In this document: one piece after another, positions 16,407 through 52,845 of the stretch
Layout: each line of letters begins with the position of its first letter
Position numbering within the stretch: the first letter of the stretch is position 1
Sequence record: NC_028780.1
Direction: 5' to 3' (one strand)
Source of the DNA: Escherichia phage slur07
DNA: 64,000 nucleotides
Notes under the pieces: generated by a model
Databases searched by the model: none
Seen by the model: only the letters and a program-made list of their open reading frames with translations
What the model was told of the DNA's origin: nothing
Made by a program: the position numbers and the translations under genes

Positions 16407-16880
16407 ATGTTATTGACTGGCAAATTATACAAAGAAGAAAAACAGAAATTTTATGATGCACAAAACGGTAAATGCTTAATTTGCCAACGAGAACTAAATC
16501 CTGATGTTCAAGCTAATCATCTTGATCATGACCATGAATTAAATGGACCAAAAGCAGGAAAGGTACGTGGATTGCTTTGTAATCTCTGCAATGCCGCAGA
16601 AGGTCAAATGAAACATAAATTTAATCGCTCTGGTTTAAAGGGACAAGGCGTTGATTATCTTGAATGGTTAGAAAATTTACTTACTTATTTAAAATCCGAT
16701 TACACCCAAAATAATATTCACCCTAACTTTGTTGGAGATAAATCAAAGGAATTTTCTCGTTTAGGAAAAGAGGAAATGATGGCCGAGATGCTTCAAAGAG
16801 GATTTGAATATAATGAATCTGACACCAAAACACAGTTAATAGCTTCATTTAAGAAGCAGCTTAGAAAGAGTTTAAAATGA
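16407..16880 (+). CDS. 49: recombination endonuclease VII (Holliday junction resolvase)
   Basis: 157 aa (T4 gp49 length); Zn site CLICQ...C..C and HLDHDHE motif; ATGA-coupled to nrdD. Confidence 0.85.
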   Translation: MLLTGKLYKEEKQKFYDAQNGKCLICQRELNPDVQANHLDHDHELNGPKAGKVRGLLCNLCNAAEGQMKHKFNRSGLKGQGVDYLEWLENLLTYLKSDYTQNNIHPNFVGDKSKEFSRLGKEEMMAEMLQRGFEYNESDTKTQLIASFKKQLRKSLK

Positions 16881-18694
16881 CAATTGAAAAAGAAATTGAA
16901 GGATTGATTCATAAAACTAATAAAGACCTTTTAAACGAGAATGCTAATAAAGATTCTCGTGTTTTTCCAACTCAACGGGACCTTATGGCTGGTATTGTGT
17001 CTAAACACATTGCCAAAAATATGGTCCCGTCTTTTATTATGAAAGCGCATGAAAGCGGAATTATCCATTTCCACGATATTGATTATTCCCCTGCTCTTCC
17101 ATTTACTAATTGCTGTTTAGTAGATTTAAAAGGAATGCTTGAAAACGGATTTAAGCTAGGTAATGCACAGATTGAAACTCCTAAATCAATTGGCGTTGCT
17201 ACTGCAATTATGGCACAAATTACTGCACAGGTTGCTTCTCACCAATACGGCGGAACGACTTTTGCGAATGTAGATAAAGTACTTTCTCCTTATGTTAAAC
17301 GCACCTATGCAAAACATATTGAGGATGCAGAAAAATGGCAAATCGCCGATGCGTTGAATTATGCTCAATCTAAAACAGAAAAAGACGTATACGATGCATT
17401 CCAAGCTTATGAATATGAAGTAAATACTCTCTTTAGTTCAAACGGACAGACTCCTTTTGTAACAATTACATTTGGTACGGGAACTGACTGGACTGAACGA
17501 ATGATTCAGAAAGCAATTCTGAAAAATCGTATTAAAGGTCTTGGTCGTGATGGGATAACTCCTATTTTCCCTAAGCTTGTTATGTTCGTTGAAGAAGGTG
17601 TTAATCTTTATAAAGACGATCCGAACTATGATATTAAGCAGCTTGCTCTAGAGTGCGCAAGCAAAAGGATGTATCCTGATATTATTTCAGCTAAGAACAA
17701 TAAAGCTATCACTGGTTCATCTGTTCCTGTTTCTCCAATGGGTTGCCGTAGTTTCTTGAGCGTATGGAAAGATTCGACTGGTAATGAAATTCTTGATGGA
17801 CGTAATAATCTTGGTGTTGTAACATTGAATCTTCCTCGCATCGCGTTAGATTCTTATATTGGAACACAGTTCAATGAACAGAAATTTGTTGAATTGTTCA
17901 ATGAACGAATGGATTTGTGTTTTGAAGCTTTGATGTGTAGAATTAGTTCCTTAAAAGGAGTTAAAGCGACTGTTGCTCCTATTCTTTACCAAGAAGGTGC
18001 ATTCGGGGTTCGTCTTAAACCTGATGACGACATAATTGAGTTATTTAAAAACGGTAGAAGTTCAGTGTCTTTAGGATACATTGGTATTCACGAATTGAAT
18101 ATTCTTGTCGGTCGTGATATTGGACGAGAAATTTTAACTAAAATGAATGCTCATCTTAAACAGTGGACTGAAAGAACCGGATTTGCTTTTAGTTTATATT
18201 CGACTCCTGCTGAAAACCTTTGTTATCGCTTCTGTAAACTCGATACAGAAAAATATGGAAGCGTAAAAGATGTTACCGATAAAGGTTGGTACACTAACAG
18301 TTTCCATGTTTCAGTAGAAGAAAATATTACTCCGTTTGAAAAGATTTCCCGTGAAGCGCCATATCATTTCATTGCGACAGGTGGTCACATTTCTTATGTT
18401 GAACTTCCTGATATGAAAAATAACTTAAAAGGTCTTGAGGCCGTGTGGGATTATGCTGCACAACATTTAGATTATTTTGGTGTTAATATGCCAGTAGATA
18501 AATGTTTTACATGCGGAAGTACCCATGAAATGACTCCTACTGAAAACGGATTTGTTTGTTCTATTTGTGGAGAAACTGATCCTAAAAAGATGAATACCAT
18601 AAGAAGAACATGTGGTTATTTGGGAAATCCGAACGAACGCGGATTTAATCTCGGTAAAAATAAAGAAATCATGCATAGGGTTAAACACCAATGA
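16877..18694 (+). CDS. nrdD: anaerobic ribonucleoside-triphosphate reductase, intronless
   Basis: 605 aa; C-terminal Zn ribbon CFTCG...CSICGE and glycyl-radical motif RTCGYLGNP; uninterrupted ORF. Confidence 0.95.
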   Translation: MTIEKEIEGLIHKTNKDLLNENANKDSRVFPTQRDLMAGIVSKHIAKNMVPSFIMKAHESGIIHFHDIDYSPALPFTNCCLVDLKGMLENGFKLGNAQIETPKSIGVATAIMAQITAQVASHQYGGTTFANVDKVLSPYVKRTYAKHIEDAEKWQIADALNYAQSKTEKDVYDAFQAYEYEVNTLFSSNGQTPFVTITFGTGTDWTERMIQKAILKNRIKGLGRDGITPIFPKLVMFVEEGVNLYKDDPNYDIKQLALECASKRMYPDIISAKNNKAITGSSVPVSPMGCRSFLSVWKDSTGNEILDGRNNLGVVTLNLPRIALDSYIGTQFNEQKFVELFNERMDLCFEALMCRISSLKGVKATVAPILYQEGAFGVRLKPDDDIIELFKNGRSSVSLGYIGIHELNILVGRDIGREILTKMNAHLKQWTERTGFAFSLYSTPAENLCYRFCKLDTEKYGSVKDVTDKGWYTNSFHVSVEENITPFEKISREAPYHFIATGGHISYVELPDMKNNLKGLEAVWDYAAQHLDYFGVNMPVDKCFTCGSTHEMTPTENGFVCSICGETDPKKMNTIRRTCGYLGNPNERGFNLGKNKEIMHRVKHQ

Positions 18695-26048: not shown

Positions 26049-27733
26049 AGAATTTTAAACTAAATCGAGTTAGGTATCAAAATATAATGTCAGTAGGTGG
26101 AAATCCTATTGACATTCAATTAGATAAGGTTCAAAAAACTCTTATTACTGGACGAAATGGCGGTGGTAAGTCTACTATGCTAGAAGCCATCACATTTGGG
26201 CTTTTTGGCAAGCCATTTCGTGATGTAAAGAAAGGTCAATTAATAAACAGCACAAATAAGAAAGAACTTTTAGTTGAACTGTGGATGGAATATGATGAGA
26301 AAAAGTACTATATCAAAAGAGGACAAAAACCGAACGTTTTCGAAATCACCGTTAACGGTACACGTCTTAATGAATCTGCCAGCAGTAAAGATTTCCAAGC
26401 AGAATTTGAACAGCTTATCGGAATGTCATATGCCAGTTTCAAGCAGATTGTTGTCCTTGGTACAGCAGGGTATACCCCTTTCATGGGTTTGTCGACCCCT
26501 GCACGAAGAAAGCTTGTGGAAGACCTGCTTGAGGTAGGAACATTAGCTGAAATGGATAAGCTTAATAAAGCACTAATACGTGAATTAAATTCACAAAACC
26601 AAGTGCTTGATGTTAAAAAAGATAGTATTATCCAACAAATTAAAATATATAATGATAACGTTGAACGCCAGAAAAAATTAACGGGTGACAACCTTACTCG
26701 TCTGCAAAATATGTACGATGATTTGGCAAAAGAAGCTAGAACGCTAAAATCGGAAATAGAAGAAGCTAATGAAAGATTAGTTAATATTGTTTTGGATGAA
26801 GACCCGACTGATGCATTTAATAAAATCGGTCAAGAAGCAGTTTTAATTAAATCAAAAATTGACTCATATAATAAAGTCATTAATATGTATCACGAAGGTG
26901 GATTATGTCCAACCTGTTTGTCGCAATTAAGTTCCGGTGATAAAGTTGTTTCTAAAATTAAAGATAAAGTTTCTGAATGCACGCATTCGTTTGAACAGCT
27001 TTCAACACATCGTGATAATTTAAAAGTTCTTGTTGATGAATACCGAGATAATATTAAAACCCAACAGTCGTTGGCAAATGATATTCGCAATAAAAAGCAA
27101 TCTCTAATCACGACGGTAGATAAAGCTAAAAAAGTTAAAGCGGCTATAGAAAAAGCATCTTCTGAGTTTATTGACCATGCTGATGAAATAGCACTGCTTC
27201 AAGAAGAACTTGATAAAATTGTTAAGACAAAAACTAATTTAGTAATGGAAAAATACCACCGAGGAATTTTGACTGATATGCTCAAAGATTCTGGTATTAA
27301 AGGTGCTATTATTAAAAAGTACATTCCATTATTTAATAAGCAGATTAACCATTATCTTAAAATAATGGAAGCGGATTATGTGTTTACATTAGATGAAGAA
27401 TTTAATGAGACAATTAAATCCCGTGGTCGTGAAGATTTTAGTTATGCTTCATTCAGTCAAGGTGAAAAAGCACGAATTGATATTGCTCTTTTATTTACTT
27501 GGCGTGATATTGCTGAAAAAGTTTCAGGTGTTAAAATAAGTTGTTTATTTCTTGATGAAGTGTATGACGGTGCATTTGATGCTGAAGGTATTAAAAATGT
27601 AGCTAAAATTTTAGATGGTTTGAAGGATACCAACTTCTTCATAATTTCGCATAAAGACCATGACCCACAAGAATATGGTCAGCATATTCAGATGGAAAAA
27701 GTTGGTAGATTTAGTTTAGCTAAGATTAGCTAA
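26045..27733 (+). CDS. 46: recombination ATPase subunit gp46 (Rad50/SbcC-like)
   Basis: 562 aa; Walker A GRNGGGKST, central coiled coil with CPTC zinc hook, C-terminal LFLDEVYDG. Confidence 0.9.
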   Translation: MKNFKLNRVRYQNIMSVGGNPIDIQLDKVQKTLITGRNGGGKSTMLEAITFGLFGKPFRDVKKGQLINSTNKKELLVELWMEYDEKKYYIKRGQKPNVFEITVNGTRLNESASSKDFQAEFEQLIGMSYASFKQIVVLGTAGYTPFMGLSTPARRKLVEDLLEVGTLAEMDKLNKALIRELNSQNQVLDVKKDSIIQQIKIYNDNVERQKKLTGDNLTRLQNMYDDLAKEARTLKSEIEEANERLVNIVLDEDPTDAFNKIGQEAVLIKSKIDSYNKVINMYHEGGLCPTCLSQLSSGDKVVSKIKDKVSECTHSFEQLSTHRDNLKVLVDEYRDNIKTQQSLANDIRNKKQSLITTVDKAKKVKAAIEKASSEFIDHADEIALLQEELDKIVKTKTNLVMEKYHRGILTDMLKDSGIKGAIIKKYIPLFNKQINHYLKIMEADYVFTLDEEFNETIKSRGREDFSYASFSQGEKARIDIALLFTWRDIAEKVSGVKISCLFLDEVYDGAFDAEGIKNVAKILDGLKDTNFFIISHKDHDPQEYGQHIQMEKVGRFSLAKIS

Positions 27734-28442
27734 GTTTATATTTACAGTTATCATTATGCCACCTTGATAAATTTCCGAAAGTGGTAACTTTACCGCAATG
27801 GACGCAAGTACCAGTCTTTTCAGTTTTCTTGCGTCCATTTGGATTTTTCTTGCAGAAATTTCTATGCGCTGCGATAACGCATTTCTTGCCTATCATTCCG
27901 CAGAATTCGCAGGATGTTTCTTCAAGAACGATTGCTTTAAGCCCGTTTGAGATATTATTTCTGTGTTCTTTAGACATTGGTGGTCTAACTTTAGGATTGG
28001 GGTGATTTGGGCAGTTATCAAAATGCCAACGATTCATATTCCCGCTTAATCCAGACTTACCGCAATGAGGACAAGTTAGTCTTGCTTTATTAGCTACTGC
28101 ATCAGACATTTTCTTTCGTGTCTCCTGGGAGAATTCTTTATTCTTTTCTATTTCCCAGAGTTTACGACGAATCCAACCGAAAGTTTTATTGTTGCGTTTA
28201 GCGTATTTTGTGGAAACTGTCATCATGTTAGCAGCATAGACTAATTTTGGTTCAGAAGGATAAATTTTTACTAAAAGTTGATGAGCTACATAGTGCTCTT
28301 CTGGTGTTAAATCTACTAAGTTTGAGGCATCATCGCTGCCATTTAAACAGCGTGGTATAATGTGATGAGATTCAGTATAGCAATCAAGTTTTCGAGATTT
28401 AGCATTAGAGATTAACTTTTCATAAATTAGTTTATAATTCAT
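27726..28442 (-). mobile_element. free-standing HNH homing endonuclease-like gene (Mob-type), antisense
   Basis: 238 aa minus-strand ORF with SD; HNH motif ESHHIIPR...N...H; three repeated Cys zinc-finger units (CPHCGK...WHFDNC, CEFCG...C, CVHCGK...WHNDNC); convergent with 46. Confidence 0.75.
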
Positions 28443-40871: not shown

Positions 40872-41129
40872 ATGCATATTGTTTTATTTAAACCTACTCC
40901 GTATAACGTCAGGAAAAATACACAATTTAAAGCACTTATTGCAGATACGTGGGAATTGGTGTTAGATATTCCAGCAGAAGAAAGTCCTCCATTTGGTCGA
41001 GTGGAATTTATTAAGTTTGCTGTACGTCCTACGAAGCGACAGATTCGTCAGTGTAAAAGGTATTTTCGTAAGATCGTTAAGCTAGAGAAACAGTTTGTAA
41101 CATGTGATTACGCAGAAGTTTTAAAATAA
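40872..41129 (+). CDS. hypothetical protein (61.4 position)
   Basis: 85 aa from ATG 40872 (SD gagg). Confidence 0.4.
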   Translation: MHIVLFKPTPYNVRKNTQFKALIADTWELVLDIPAEESPPFGRVEFIKFAVRPTKRQIRQCKRYFRKIVKLEKQFVTCDYAEVLK

Positions 41130-41189: not shown

Positions 41190-41483
41190 ATGAAAAAATT
41201 TATCTTTGCCACAATTTTTGCTTTAGCTTCTTGTGCTGCTCAGCCTGCTATGGCAGGTTATGATAAAGATTTGTGCGAATGGTCTATGACTGCTGATCAG
41301 ACTGAGGTTGAAACTCAAATTGAAGCAGATATTATGAATATCGTTGAGCGCGATCGCCCTGAAATGAAAGCTGAAGTGCAAAAACAGCTTAAGTCTGGTG
41401 GTGTAATGCAGTATAATTATGTTCTGTATTGCGATAAAAACTTTAATAATAAAAATATCATCGCTGAAGTGGTAGGTGAGTAA
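41190..41483 (+). CDS. sp: secreted periplasmic protein, spackle (Sp)-like
   Basis: 97 aa (T4 Sp length) with cleavable signal peptide MKKFIFATIFALASCAAQPAMA; position upstream of 61. Confidence 0.45.
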   Translation: MKKFIFATIFALASCAAQPAMAGYDKDLCEWSMTADQTEVETQIEADIMNIVERDRPEMKAEVQKQLKSGGVMQYNYVLYCDKNFNNKNIIAEVVGE

Positions 41484-41495
41484 TTAGAGGTTAAT

Positions 41496-41852
41496 ATGTA
41501 TAGTTCTGAATTTTCATATTTAAAAATGGAAAAAATTTCATACGATTTTATAGATGAAAAGGTTTATTACAGTTTCCATGAACCACGTTTTAATAGTGAG
41601 GTTGGGTTTATTGTAGTAAAAGATAATTTTATTTTAAAAATATATTCAGCATTAAAGGATTTTCATTACGAAAATATTAACCTAAAATTTAATAAAGAAA
41701 ACGTTCGTAATTGCGCAGTAACAATTACAGGAAATAAAGGTACATGTGTTATGCTATCTGATGAAATTAATGATTTGCTAAATGATGCAGAAAATATTAC
41801 TGCACCATCTATTGATGACCAAATTTTTAATGCTTTTATGAATAGAGGTTAA
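41496..41852 (+). CDS. hypothetical protein (61.2 position)
   Basis: 118 aa ORF. Confidence 0.4.
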   Translation: MYSSEFSYLKMEKISYDFIDEKVYYSFHEPRFNSEVGFIVVKDNFILKIYSALKDFHYENINLKFNKENVRNCAVTITGNKGTCVMLSDEINDLLNDAENITAPSIDDQIFNAFMNRG

Positions 41853-42020: not shown

Positions 42021-43049
42021 ATGTCATCAATACCTTGGATTGATAATGAGTTTGCATACCGTGCATTAGCTCATTTACCTAAATTCACACAAGTAAATAA
42101 TAGTTCAACTTTTAAATTACGGTTTAGATGTCCTGTTTGTGGAGATTCAAAAACCGACCAGAATAAAGCTCGTGGATGGTATTATGGTGATAATAATGAA
42201 GGAAATATTCATTGTTATAACTGTAACTATCATGCACCAATCGGAATATATTTAAAGGAGTTTGAACCTGATTTATATCGTGAGTATATCTTTGAAATAA
42301 GAAAAGAAAAAGGTAAAAGTCGTCCAGTAGAAAAACCTAAAGAACTTCCTAAACAACCTGAGAAGAAAATAATTAAATCTCTTCCGTCATGTGTTAGATT
42401 AGATAAACTGGCGGAAGACCATCCAATTATAAAATATGTAAAAGCTCGTTGTATTCCAAAGGATAAATGGAAATATCTTTGGTTTACAACCGAATGGCCT
42501 AAATTAGTTAATAGTATAGCACCCGGAACATATAAAAAGGAAATACCTGAGCCTCGTCTTGTTATTCCAATTTATAATGCTAATGGAAAAGCTGAGTCTT
42601 TTCAAGGACGTGCATTAAAGAAAGATGCTCCTCAAAAATATATAACCATCAAAGCTTATCCTGAGGCAACAAAAATCTATGGAGTCGAACGAGTTAAAGA
42701 TGGTGATGTATATGTTCTAGAAGGACCTATAGATTCACTTTTTATTGAAAATGGTATAGCTATTACGGGTGGTCAATTAGACCTAGAAGTTGTTCCATTT
42801 AAAGATAGACGTGTGTGGGTTTTAGATAATGAACCTCGTCATCCTGACACTATTAAGCGAATGACTAAATTAGTTGATGCAGGAGAAAGGGTTATGTTTT
42901 GGGATAAATCTCCCTGGAAATCAAAAGATGTTAATGATATGATTAGAAAGGAAGGTGCAACCCCTGAACAAATTATGGAATATATGAAAAATAATATTGC
43001 CCAGGGGTTGATGGCTAAAATGCGGTTATCTAAATATGCTAAGATTTAA
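42021..43049 (+). CDS. 61: DNA primase gp61
   Basis: 342 aa (T4 gp61 length); N-terminal zinc ribbon CPVCG...CYNC; TOPRIM EGPIDSLF. Confidence 0.9.
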   Translation: MSSIPWIDNEFAYRALAHLPKFTQVNNSSTFKLRFRCPVCGDSKTDQNKARGWYYGDNNEGNIHCYNCNYHAPIGIYLKEFEPDLYREYIFEIRKEKGKSRPVEKPKELPKQPEKKIIKSLPSCVRLDKLAEDHPIIKYVKARCIPKDKWKYLWFTTEWPKLVNSIAPGTYKKEIPEPRLVIPIYNANGKAESFQGRALKKDAPQKYITIKAYPEATKIYGVERVKDGDVYVLEGPIDSLFIENGIAITGGQLDLEVVPFKDRRVWVLDNEPRHPDTIKRMTKLVDAGERVMFWDKSPWKSKDVNDMIRKEGATPEQIMEYMKNNIAQGLMAKMRLSKYAKI

Positions 43050-43246
43050 ATTAACCCAACTAAAGCAAATGCTAAATCTACGAATGTATCAAGAGTAACT
43101 ACTGGAATATTAATACCATGTGCAATTGCAACAGGTGATAAAATAAAGTTCCAGAGTAAAATTCCTACCATAGCAGAAATAGTAAAAGCTATACGTTTCT
43201 TATTACCTTTTATGGCATTAACAAGTGCCATTAATTTTTGTACCAT
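43046..43246 (-). CDS. antisense small membrane protein
   Basis: 66 aa minus-strand ORF, strong SD (ggagg 5 nt before ATG), two hydrophobic helices; occupies the 61-56 gap. Confidence 0.45.
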   Translation of the reverse strand: MVQKLMALVNAIKGNKKRIAFTISAMVGILLWNFILSPVAIAHGINIPVVTLDTFVDLAFALVGLI

Positions 43247-43259
43247 ATGTCCTCCTTAT

Positions 43260-43283
43260 TGCTTTATATATTTATTGTATAAT
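43260..43283 (+). promoter_or_regulatory. putative MotA-dependent middle promoter for gene 56
   Basis: TGCTTTA 43260-43266, 11 nt, TATAAT 43278-43283. Confidence 0.55.
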
Positions 43284-43317
43284 TAATCTACTAACCCATG
43301 AATTGAAAGGAAAAATA

Positions 43318-43836
43318 ATGGCTCACTTTAATGAATGTGCTCATTTGATCGAAGGTGTTGATAAAGCAAATCGTGCATATGCTGAGTATATTATGCACAG
43401 TATTGACCCATTGCAGGTTATGCTTGACATGCAGCGGCATTTACAGATTCGTTTGGCTAATGATAAACCAGAAACAAATCGTCATCCTGATTCACTTGAA
43501 ACTGCAGGAGAAGTTCTTGCTTGGCTGCGAAACCAAGACGATTATATCGCAGATGAAACTCGCGAGCTATATACTTCTCTTGGTGGTATGAGTAATGGTG
43601 AAAAAGAAGCTTCTGCCGTATGGAAACCTTGGAAGAAACGTTATTCTGAAATGCAATCCAAGAAAATTCAAGACTTATCTCCTGAAGATCAACTTGAAAT
43701 TAAATTTGAACTGATTGATCAATTTCACTTTTTCATGAATAAATTCATTGCTCTTGGAATGTCAGCTGAAGAAATATTTAAACTTTATTATCTGAAAAAT
43801 GCTGAAAACTTCGCTCGTCAAGACAGAGGCTATTAA
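43318..43836 (+). CDS. 56: dCTP pyrophosphatase gp56 (MazG-like)
   Basis: 172 aa from ATG 43318 (MAHFNECAHLIEG...); track start 43225 rejected because it runs through the promoter. Confidence 0.75.
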   Translation: MAHFNECAHLIEGVDKANRAYAEYIMHSIDPLQVMLDMQRHLQIRLANDKPETNRHPDSLETAGEVLAWLRNQDDYIADETRELYTSLGGMSNGEKEASAVWKPWKKRYSEMQSKKIQDLSPEDQLEIKFELIDQFHFFMNKFIALGMSAEEIFKLYYLKNAENFARQDRGY

Positions 43837-52407: not shown

Positions 52408-52845
52408 ATGATTAAAAATAATGCTGTTTATCAATTGAAAAAATTTGATGAAATTAAGAATTTTTCGGTACTGTCTAATACAGCTCATAATAAGTTTTGT
52501 GAACTTCTTGGTTTAACTGGCGGATATCCTTTTACTGTTATTAGTGTTAATAGCGGAATTCTTATCGGTATGATGTATATTGAAATTAGAAACTATTATG
52601 GAATGGTATCACCGCTTATTATTTATGAAAAAGATTTTAGTCTATTGACAGAAATTGAAAAACCTGAAGACCCGACTGATTTGTTGTGTAAGGCAGTTTA
52701 TATTCGTCGTCCATTCGCGAATCCGATTGGCGGTTGGGTAACTGACCAGTGGATTGAAGATGGCGTTGAACTTCTTAATGTAGTTCATGCTGGAGAGTAC
52801 TCCGTAGTTCCTCGCAGCGCAGTGATTAATGTTCGTGTAAGCTAG
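52408..52845 (+). CDS. hypothetical protein (paralog pair, shared C-terminal domain)
   Basis: 145 aa; C-terminal ..GGWVTDQWIEDGVELLNVVHAGEYSVVP.. shared with 52919..53407. Confidence 0.5.
   Translation: MIKNNAVYQLKKFDEIKNFSVLSNTAHNKFCELLGLTGGYPFTVISVNSGILIGMMYIEIRNYYGMVSPLIIYEKDFSLLTEIEKPEDPTDLLCKAVYIRRPFANPIGGWVTDQWIEDGVELLNVVHAGEYSVVPRSAVINVRVS

Follow-up and report, generated by a model that had tools for sequence, protein, structure and literature searches.

The 64-kb window analysed here is a stretch of the genome of Escherichia phage slur07 (NC_028780.1), and our focus is the short interval in it between gene 61, which encodes the DNA primase, and gene 56, which encodes the dCTPase/dUTPase. 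T4 carries the methyltransferase gene dam in this interval, and the window carries there a small gene on the opposite strand, dam.1, together with putative signals for the transcription of dam.1 and of gene 56 (Table 1). The interval measures 268 bp (43050..43317), the value given in the first-pass annotation of the window, and the 66-aa minus-strand open reading frame (ORF) with its strong Shine-Dalgarno (SD) sequence and the MotA-type middle promoter of gene 56 on the other strand, described in the same annotation, are all present. dam.1 is convergent with gene 61, and the stop codons of the two genes overlap by 4 nt. Judged by sequence, the source is a Tequatrovirus closest to RB18, phiD1 and R5505: over positions 42021-43836 the window shares 99.1% identity with RB18, Yersinia phage phiD1 and vB_EcoM_R5505 and 98.1% with T6, and over its full length it aligns collinearly with RB18 at 95-98% identity. 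Approximately 100 kb of the source genome lie outside the window. The primase (gp61) is 99% identical to those of T4 and T6, and gp56 is of the T6/RB18-type allele, with 98% identity to the T6 and RB18 proteins and 70% to the T4 protein.

Table 1. Genes and signals in and around the interval between genes 61 and 56, in window coordinates
Feature	Position	Strand	Basis
Gene 61 (DNA primase, 342 aa)	42021..43049	+	ORF list; PHROG 47 DNA primase, E 7.9e-107
dam.1 (RB69ORF029w, PHROG 2024), gene for a 66-aa small membrane protein	43046..43246	-	PHROG match, synteny, ratio of nonsynonymous to synonymous substitution rates (dN/dS)
Terminator-like hairpin and T-run 3' of gene 61, inside the 5' coding part of dam.1	43212..43241	+	Pattern scan
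SD of dam.1, AAGGAGG (GGAGG at 43255..43251), 4 nt before the ATG	43250..43257	-	Read from sequence
MotA-type middle promoter of gene 56: Mot box ATTGCTTTA (43257-43266), 11-nt spacer, TATAAT (43278-43283)	43257..43283	+	Sequence
Empty insertion slot	43258..43277	no strand	blastn of window against L015 and L016; T4 alignment
Putative gp55-dependent late promoter box of dam.1, AATAAATA	43276..43269	-	Conserved heptamer; T4 late-promoter variants
Gene 56 (dCTPase/dUTPase, 172 aa, ATG at 43318)	43318..43836	+	PHROG 173, E 2.7e-44

No T4-type Dam is encoded at this locus or anywhere in the window. The T4 gene, correctly given in the first-pass annotation as a gene of about 780 bp between genes 61 and 56, spans 16846..17625 (780 bp) in its own genome. 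With T4 Dam as the tblastn query, the 64-kb window yielded no homolog (best E 0.32). The [DN]PP[YFW] catalytic motif is absent from all six of its frames, leaving neither a homologous ORF nor a DPPY- or NPPY-type motif; the looser pattern [DNS]PP[YFW] has a single match, SPPF in a 103-aa ORF at 40983. The entire RB18 genome likewise gave no homolog in tblastn (best E 0.058), and its annotation includes no methylase. Relative to T4, approximately 890 bp are missing from the window, made up of dam and a 112-bp spacer that holds the remnant of a 186-aa reading frame (ORF186), and no remnant of either dam or ORF186 was found between 43257 and 43278. Taken as a whole, the locus is in our judgement probably a common empty-slot allele, in which dam is an accessory gene and dam.1 a resident, conserved one.

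The dam.1 gene and the adjoining slot

The small antisense gene is assigned to the dam.1/RB69ORF029w family (PHROG 2024, function unknown) by a full-length profile match (E 1.4e-31, residues 2-66 against profile positions 1-65 of 65), by its position and by its conserved residues; Pfam, NCBIfam and PADLOC gave no match. In T4 the gap between gene 61 and dam is 309 bp long and holds the same 66-aa ORF, which differs from the copy in the window at 2 residues. This T4 copy was left out of the NC_000866 annotation and is named dam.1 in the T4T record (HM137666; T4Tp032 / ADJ39749), the T6 record also annotates its own copy as dam.1, and RB18 labels its copy "similar to RB69ORF029w; RB32ORF030w". 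The genes called dam.1 in T4 and T6, RB69ORF029w and RB32ORF030w are one and the same, equal in length, strand and position convergent with gene 61, and the copy in the window is 97-98% identical to those of T4 and T6 and 55% identical to that of RB69 (RB69ORF029w). The dam-bearing phages L015 and L016 also carry dam.1. Homology between the window and dam-bearing phages spans gene 61, dam.1 and the dam.1 SD, breaks off after 43257 and picks up again at 43278 with the -10 element of gene 56. Because T4, L015 and L016 hold both genes, and because homology runs through dam.1 and its SD, these alignments indicate that dam.1 is the resident gene and dam the cargo inserted beside it. The suggestion of the first-pass annotation that the antisense gene stands in the place of dam is contradicted by the same three phages, and the synteny comparison with T4 that it proposed finds dam in the expected interval but also finds the same antisense ORF next to it.

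Conservation of dam.1 extends well beyond the close relatives of the window, to many genera of the enterobacterial Tevenvirinae, in which homologs keep the antisense position. Our counts rest on the GenBank phage collection, and a scan for the locus in IMG/VR gave 10 loci. A copy with at least 90% identity is present in approximately 501 records and one with 44-57% identity in 190 more, and the antisense gene lies between genes 61 and 56 in the window, T4, T6, RB18, RB69, DK-13, TH40, L012-L022, L026 and PKO111. A profile search of 1.84 billion proteins returned only 8 matches, 3 of them remote proteins of 62-68 aa that share a W-N-[FY]...P...HG...LP...[LI]E core with dam.1. Two of these, P0077 and P0079, come from divergent T4-like contigs, where their genes lie on the opposite strand between dCTPase and primase genes; the gene for the third, P0078, is antisense to the ORFs on either side of it in a contig of 745 bp. 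With the remote forms as queries, tblastn detected relatives in 183-279 further T4-like phage records from Klebsiella, Salmonella, Citrobacter, Enterobacter and Escherichia, and several of the relatives in Klebsiella, Salmonella and Citrobacter phages are annotated beside a DNA primase. A fold search of dam.1 against viral models returned members of the dam.1 family and a Karamvirus protein that is probably homologous, and nothing else. 

The pattern of substitution supports a protein-coding role. Within clades the dN/dS of dam.1 is 0.10-0.47, and between genera 49-56% protein identity is retained although synonymous sites are saturated, which shows that purifying selection acts on the dam.1 protein. 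Fifteen divergent homologs, with identities as low as approximately 30%, preserve the frame together with its length, SD and start, and the alignments share a K/L-rich basic N-terminus, W-N-F, P38, A-H-G, P48, D/E53, D57 and G64-L65. dam.1 is an already annotated but unstudied hypothetical gene, and its interest lies in being among the few opposite-strand genes of the T-even early region, conserved across many genera and furnished with a putative late-promoter box of its own. Its omission from NC_000866 means that omics and CRISPR interference screens built on that annotation miss it.

The content of the slot next to dam.1 is highly variable. It is empty in the window, T6, RB18 and L012-L014, and holds dam alone in T4 and L015; a 186-aa ORF (ORF186) precedes dam in most dam-bearing relatives, among them L016, ESCO58, G3G7, T2 and approximately 155 records. 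Comparison of T4 with L016 reveals a clean 540-bp deletion that leaves only the last 28 codons of ORF186 in T4. In Klebsiella phage PKO111 (L031) the slot contains a 495-aa protein with a GIY-YIG domain and a methyltransferase, and in Yersinia phage fPS-90 (L030) a homing endonuclease lies between the gene 56 SD and the gene 56 coding sequence, where it is driven by the gene 56 promoter and SD. DK-13 (L008) has a homing endonuclease between gene 61 and dam.1. The gene on the far side of the slot also varies, gp56 occurring as two alleles (70% versus 98% identical to that of the window) beside a gp61 that is 99% identical, and comparison of L001, L012, L014 and L016 shows that the gp56 allele type assorts independently of the presence of dam. 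The boundary of this gp56 mosaic is sharp and falls at the gene 56 promoter. These comparisons mark the interval between genes 61 and 56 as a hotspot of recombination and of mobile elements.

The first-pass annotation had implied that a junction of this kind is rare. Of 486 phage records that match a 151-bp query across it (43200-43350), 284 align without interruption, T6 and RB18 included, and a T4-type Dam (at least 90% identity) was counted in 182 records; in the outgroups, Mosigvirus RB69 and the Gaprivervirus phages DK-13 and TH40, dam.1 is present and no dam lies between genes 61 and 56. The window shows the majority arrangement, deposited many times in GenBank with T6 among the depositions, and the absence of dam needs no special explanation, because dam is accessory cargo in a variable slot. 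The dam-less locus is an ordinary and already annotated presence/absence polymorphism of an accessory gene.

Putative signals for transcription of dam.1 and gene 56

Upstream of dam.1, a GGAGG or GGAG is present in 15 of 15 homologs examined, and a NATAAATA box lies 21-40 nt 5' of the ATG in every lineage examined. Exactly one ATAAATA heptamer occurs at that distance in each of the 15 homologs, in flanks that are otherwise unrelated. The heptamer is scarce in the window, with 8 sites over both strands (128 kb) against approximately 50 expected from base counts, and the probability of finding it in a given 25-nt span is P ~0.0016; such avoidance fits the role of a late-promoter core in a mostly early region. 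Its minus-strand sites in the window are at 52626, 45537, 43275 and 28482.

Late promoters of T4, which depend on gp55, gp33 and gp45, lack a -35 element; they carry TATAAATA from -13 to -6, with A+T-rich sequence downstream of it. Of the 50 listed by Geiduschek and Kassavetis (PMC2988020), 32 have TATAAATA and 9 carry A at -13, the commonest variant; minus-strand polarity is opposite to that of early and middle transcription, and only late transcripts run in that direction (PMC2988020). The candidate box of dam.1, AATAAATA, agrees with the consensus at 7 of 8 positions, with A at -13; as in T4 late promoters, A+T-rich sequence and a short, SD-containing leader come after it. Unlike the T4 consensus, T at -13 is absent from all 15 dam.1 homologs, and the promoter may be deliberately weak. 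No sigma-70-like site was found on the minus strand. We infer late, gp55-dependent transcription of dam.1 because the heptamer and the SD are present in 15 of 15 homologs, the heptamer is rare and the A(-13) variant is known. RNA polymerase carrying gp55 would start at approximately 43263 from this variant promoter and give a 17-nt leader.

On the plus strand, the predicted promoter of gene 56 is the counterpart of T4 P(M)16.53, whose mot box and -10 element are annotated in X01416 and whose transcript also primes oriA, annotated in NC_000866. Middle promoters dependent on MotA and AsiA lack a -35 element and combine an (a/t)(a/t)(a/t)TGCTT(t/c)A box centred near -30 with a sigma-70 -10 element at a distance of 11-13 bp, and the predicted gene 56 promoter shows these sequence features. 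The same layout of box, spacer and -10 occurs in RB69, DK-13 and L022. The flanking genes, the MotA promoter of gene 56 and dam.1 are common to the window and the 61-dam-56 region of T4 (X01416, NC_000866), and the arrangement of the two promoters differs. In outgroups and dam-bearing phages the order, read in the sense of gene 56, is SD, late box, Mot box and -10, whereas in phages of the window type the late box falls within the 11 nt that separate the Mot box from the -10. Where dam separates dam.1 from gene 56 in T4, the promoter region of dam.1 is fused with the gene 56 middle promoter in the window. The late box was kept through this rearrangement, which argues that it is functional. With the late box inside the MotA spacer, the back-to-back promoters of the window allele could presumably not be occupied at once. 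In T4, 890 bp separate the dam.1 late box from the gene 56 promoter, and overlap of the two promoters is therefore not required.

The dam.1 product and competing explanations

The first-pass annotation had described the dam.1 product as a two-helix membrane protein, a description that holds in part. An AlphaFold2 model built on an 18-sequence alignment (mean predicted local distance difference test score, pLDDT, 79.6) has helices at residues 2-14, 16-42 and 52-63. There is one strong transmembrane (TM) segment, at residues 19-41, with an octanol-scale free energy of -10.7 kcal/mol for residues 19-37, and the N-terminus carries a net charge of +5. The 22-residue C-terminal tail is of marginal hydrophobicity (-1.5 kcal/mol) and acidic (net charge -2), and its helix is clearly amphipathic in the remote homologs. 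The likeliest topology on this model has the N-terminus inside, a single TM helix and a short amphipathic helix on the periplasmic face. The product would enter the inner membrane with its basic N-terminus in the cytoplasm, its one TM helix (about residues 19-42) would bear the conserved W-N-F, P and A-H-G residues, and the short acidic C-terminal helix would lie along the periplasmic face.

In or beside the TM helix, N33, H43, G44 and D57 are invariant polar residues, which would fit a defined helix-helix interaction better than nonspecific damage to the membrane. On this basis we tentatively propose, at low confidence, that dam.1 acts late in the envelope or in the timing of lysis by helix-helix interaction with a second membrane protein; adjusting when holin-dependent lysis occurs, or affecting membrane integrity, are tentative examples, and pore formation would be less likely. 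The small bitopic T-even proteins RI antiholin, Imm and Ac resemble dam.1 in size, in a single TM segment near the N-terminus and in a short extracytoplasmic tail. In contrast to them, dam.1 has a tail of approximately 22 residues without a globular periplasmic domain and a timing that is probably late rather than early, and it shares no sequence or profile similarity with them.

Among the other explanations that we considered, the one that survives best is that the dam-less state arose by secondary loss. On this view the ancestor of Tequatrovirus would have had a dam cassette that was deleted recently, and the empty slot would not be ancestral. The order of the Mot and late boxes in phages of the window type is reversed relative to outgroups and dam-bearing phages, as a rearranged junction might be, the 540-bp deletion in T4 demonstrates that clean deletions occur in the slot, and the flanks of phages with and without dam are 95-99% identical. 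Empty slots are nevertheless found in Mosigvirus, in Gaprivervirus and in the L022 lineage, and the window retains no remnant of the cassette at the junction, and we consider a loss of this kind possible but unlikely.

A more specific functional alternative is that dam.1 is itself a holin or antiholin proper. It is a small TM protein, probably expressed late, and its homolog in OE5505 is named "Holin" in UniRef and BFVD, a label that is apparently automatic. At least one TM segment in a small protein is a feature that dam.1 shares with holins, but it has neither the charged hydrophilic C-terminal tail (the protein ends in hydrophobic ...LAFALVGLI) nor a place in a lysis cassette, its neighbours being the primase and dCTPase genes and the RB18 genes e, t, rI and pseT.3 lying elsewhere. 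T-even phages, moreover, already encode holin T and the antiholins RI and RIII at other loci, and no holin family in Pfam, PHROGs or NCBIfam matches dam.1. The canonical holin was accordingly rejected as a candidate for lack of a charged tail and for its position outside the lysis cassette, and we regard the wider proposal of a holin or antiholin as improbable.

That a Dam-type methylase is encoded elsewhere in the source genome is a still weaker proposition. A portion of approximately 100 kb of the genome lies beyond the window, and some T4-like records, such as T4_ev240, contain a second, distant methylase-like match; against this, the collinear genome of RB18 has neither a Dam homolog nor an annotated methylase, and we place very little weight on it. 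Slightly less credible again is the idea that the dam.1 ORF is untranslated and that its DNA or RNA is conserved, for instance as a terminator of gene 61, as DNA flanking the gene 56/oriA promoter on its upstream side, or as an antisense RNA regulating gene 61 or 56. The ORF does converge on gene 61 and abut the gene 56 promoter, and it contains the terminator-like hairpin, whose counterpart in Yersinia phage fPS-90 carries a terminator annotation. The hairpin is weak, however (fold energy -8.9 kcal/mol, z -1.68, alone not significant), and the low dN/dS, the saturated synonymous sites, the frame, length, SD and start kept across the 15 homologs, and conserved residues that make a membrane-protein pattern all speak for a translated gene. 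The exchange of dam for a new antisense membrane-protein gene at the same position, as the absence of the one and the presence of the other in the gap might suggest, is already refuted by T4, which like L015 and L016 has both genes, and also by the homologous and syntenic ORF of dam-less outgroup genera and by the homology with dam-bearing phages through the entire ORF and SD, and may be dismissed.

Several points weigh against the preferred reading of a common empty slot beside a resident, late-expressed dam.1. In T6 (MH550421; L002:4224-4226) the first codon of dam.1 is ATT and not ATG, and the record annotates a 61-aa product from the next ATG, far from the SD, so that either the start position or the requirement for the gene is not fixed. 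No lineage has T as the first base of the late box, and the promoter may be weak or unused. We found no mapped transcript 5' end and no ribosome-profiling or proteomic support for dam.1; a preprint on differential RNA sequencing (dRNA-seq) of T4 reports 150 phage start sites, 22 of them antisense. A literature search for dam.1, RB69ORF029w, RB32ORF030w and T4Tp032 found no mention of the gene, family-library and fold searches gave no functional match, and the functional assignment draws only on size, topology and inferred timing. A Dam elsewhere in the source genome, finally, is excluded only by proxy through RB18.

The missing cargo, GATC and neighbouring genes

Once the absence of dam is taken as ordinary, what the locus still offers is the conserved late-promoter box upstream of dam.1 and, in related phages, a partner of dam that resembles a restriction endonuclease (REase). 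In L016 the stop codon of ORF186 overlaps the start of dam as ATGA. ORF186 belongs to PHROG 8706 (function unknown), is present in 164 phage records, T2 among them, and has invariant residues D72 and E85-x-K87 that form a D...ExK motif. Four of 6 ORF186 members matched the Pfam DpnII profile (best E 8.3e-5, below the curated cut-off), PADLOC REase_II was matched at a sub-threshold E of 1.5e-4, and a profile search of the Protein Data Bank (PDB) gave noise only.

Dam is homologous to the DpnII methylase, and T4 Dam, to which no clear biological role is assigned, has long served as a model methyltransferase. Because an REase-like ORF186 abuts dam, and because of the homology of Dam to the DpnII methylase, the T-even dam looks like the methylase half of a restriction-modification (R-M)-like cassette. 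The invariant residues and the sub-threshold profile matches of ORF186 in the relatives were taken to indicate the PD-(D/E)XK motif and the restriction-endonuclease fold expected of a type II R-M partner. Gene overlap, the D...ExK motif and those matches to DpnII and REase_II liken the pair to type II cassettes of the DpnII/Dam (GATC) kind; in contrast to the latter, ORF186 reaches no curated threshold and is best called a putative nuclease, and the cassette is absent from the window. If ORF186 is indeed a restriction endonuclease, it would recast T4 Dam as the orphan of a phage-borne R-M cassette. Our literature search found no prior description of a T-even R-M cassette and no usable statement on whether T6 lacks adenine methylation.

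Among 4-bp palindromes GATC shows the strongest depletion, both in the window, with 63 sites observed and 204 expected (ratio 0.31), and in RB18 (ratio 0.34). These observations can be combined into a broader and distinctly speculative picture, which we hold to be doubtful as a whole, in which the interval between genes 61 and 56 is an arena of selfish DNA-targeting cassettes, dam is the methylase half of an R-M pair and dam.1 is a late envelope protein. ORF186 and Dam would form a type II module, possibly specific for GATC like DpnII, that is intact in T2 and approximately 155 other phages and, through decay, has left T4 with an orphan methylase; the window would be an empty, unprotected allele, and its depletion of GATC would reflect past exposure to the nuclease. 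Glucosylated hydroxymethylcytosine in GATC may, on the other hand, make an R-M system irrelevant for T-even DNA.

The surroundings of the locus differ from those of relatives in a few further respects. Downstream of gene 56 the window has no segF and carries soc.2-type ORFs, as T6 does. Upstream of gene 61, approximately 615 bp matching gene 61.2 are missing at 41484/41485 in comparison with RB18, and Spackle (41190..41483) is directly followed by a 118-aa ORF (41496..41852), the counterpart of RB32ORF033c by its position in the blocks collinear with RB18 alone. The description of dam.1 as one of only two antisense genes in the window was roughly right. The second clear case is an HNH-like ORF of 238 aa on the minus strand (27726..28442), whose match to Pfam HNH (E 0.007) falls short of the cut-off; a consensus TATAAATA box precedes it at about 28482. 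RB18 has no counterpart of the segment 27714-28499, and this ORF therefore probably encodes a free-standing homing endonuclease of the mob type.

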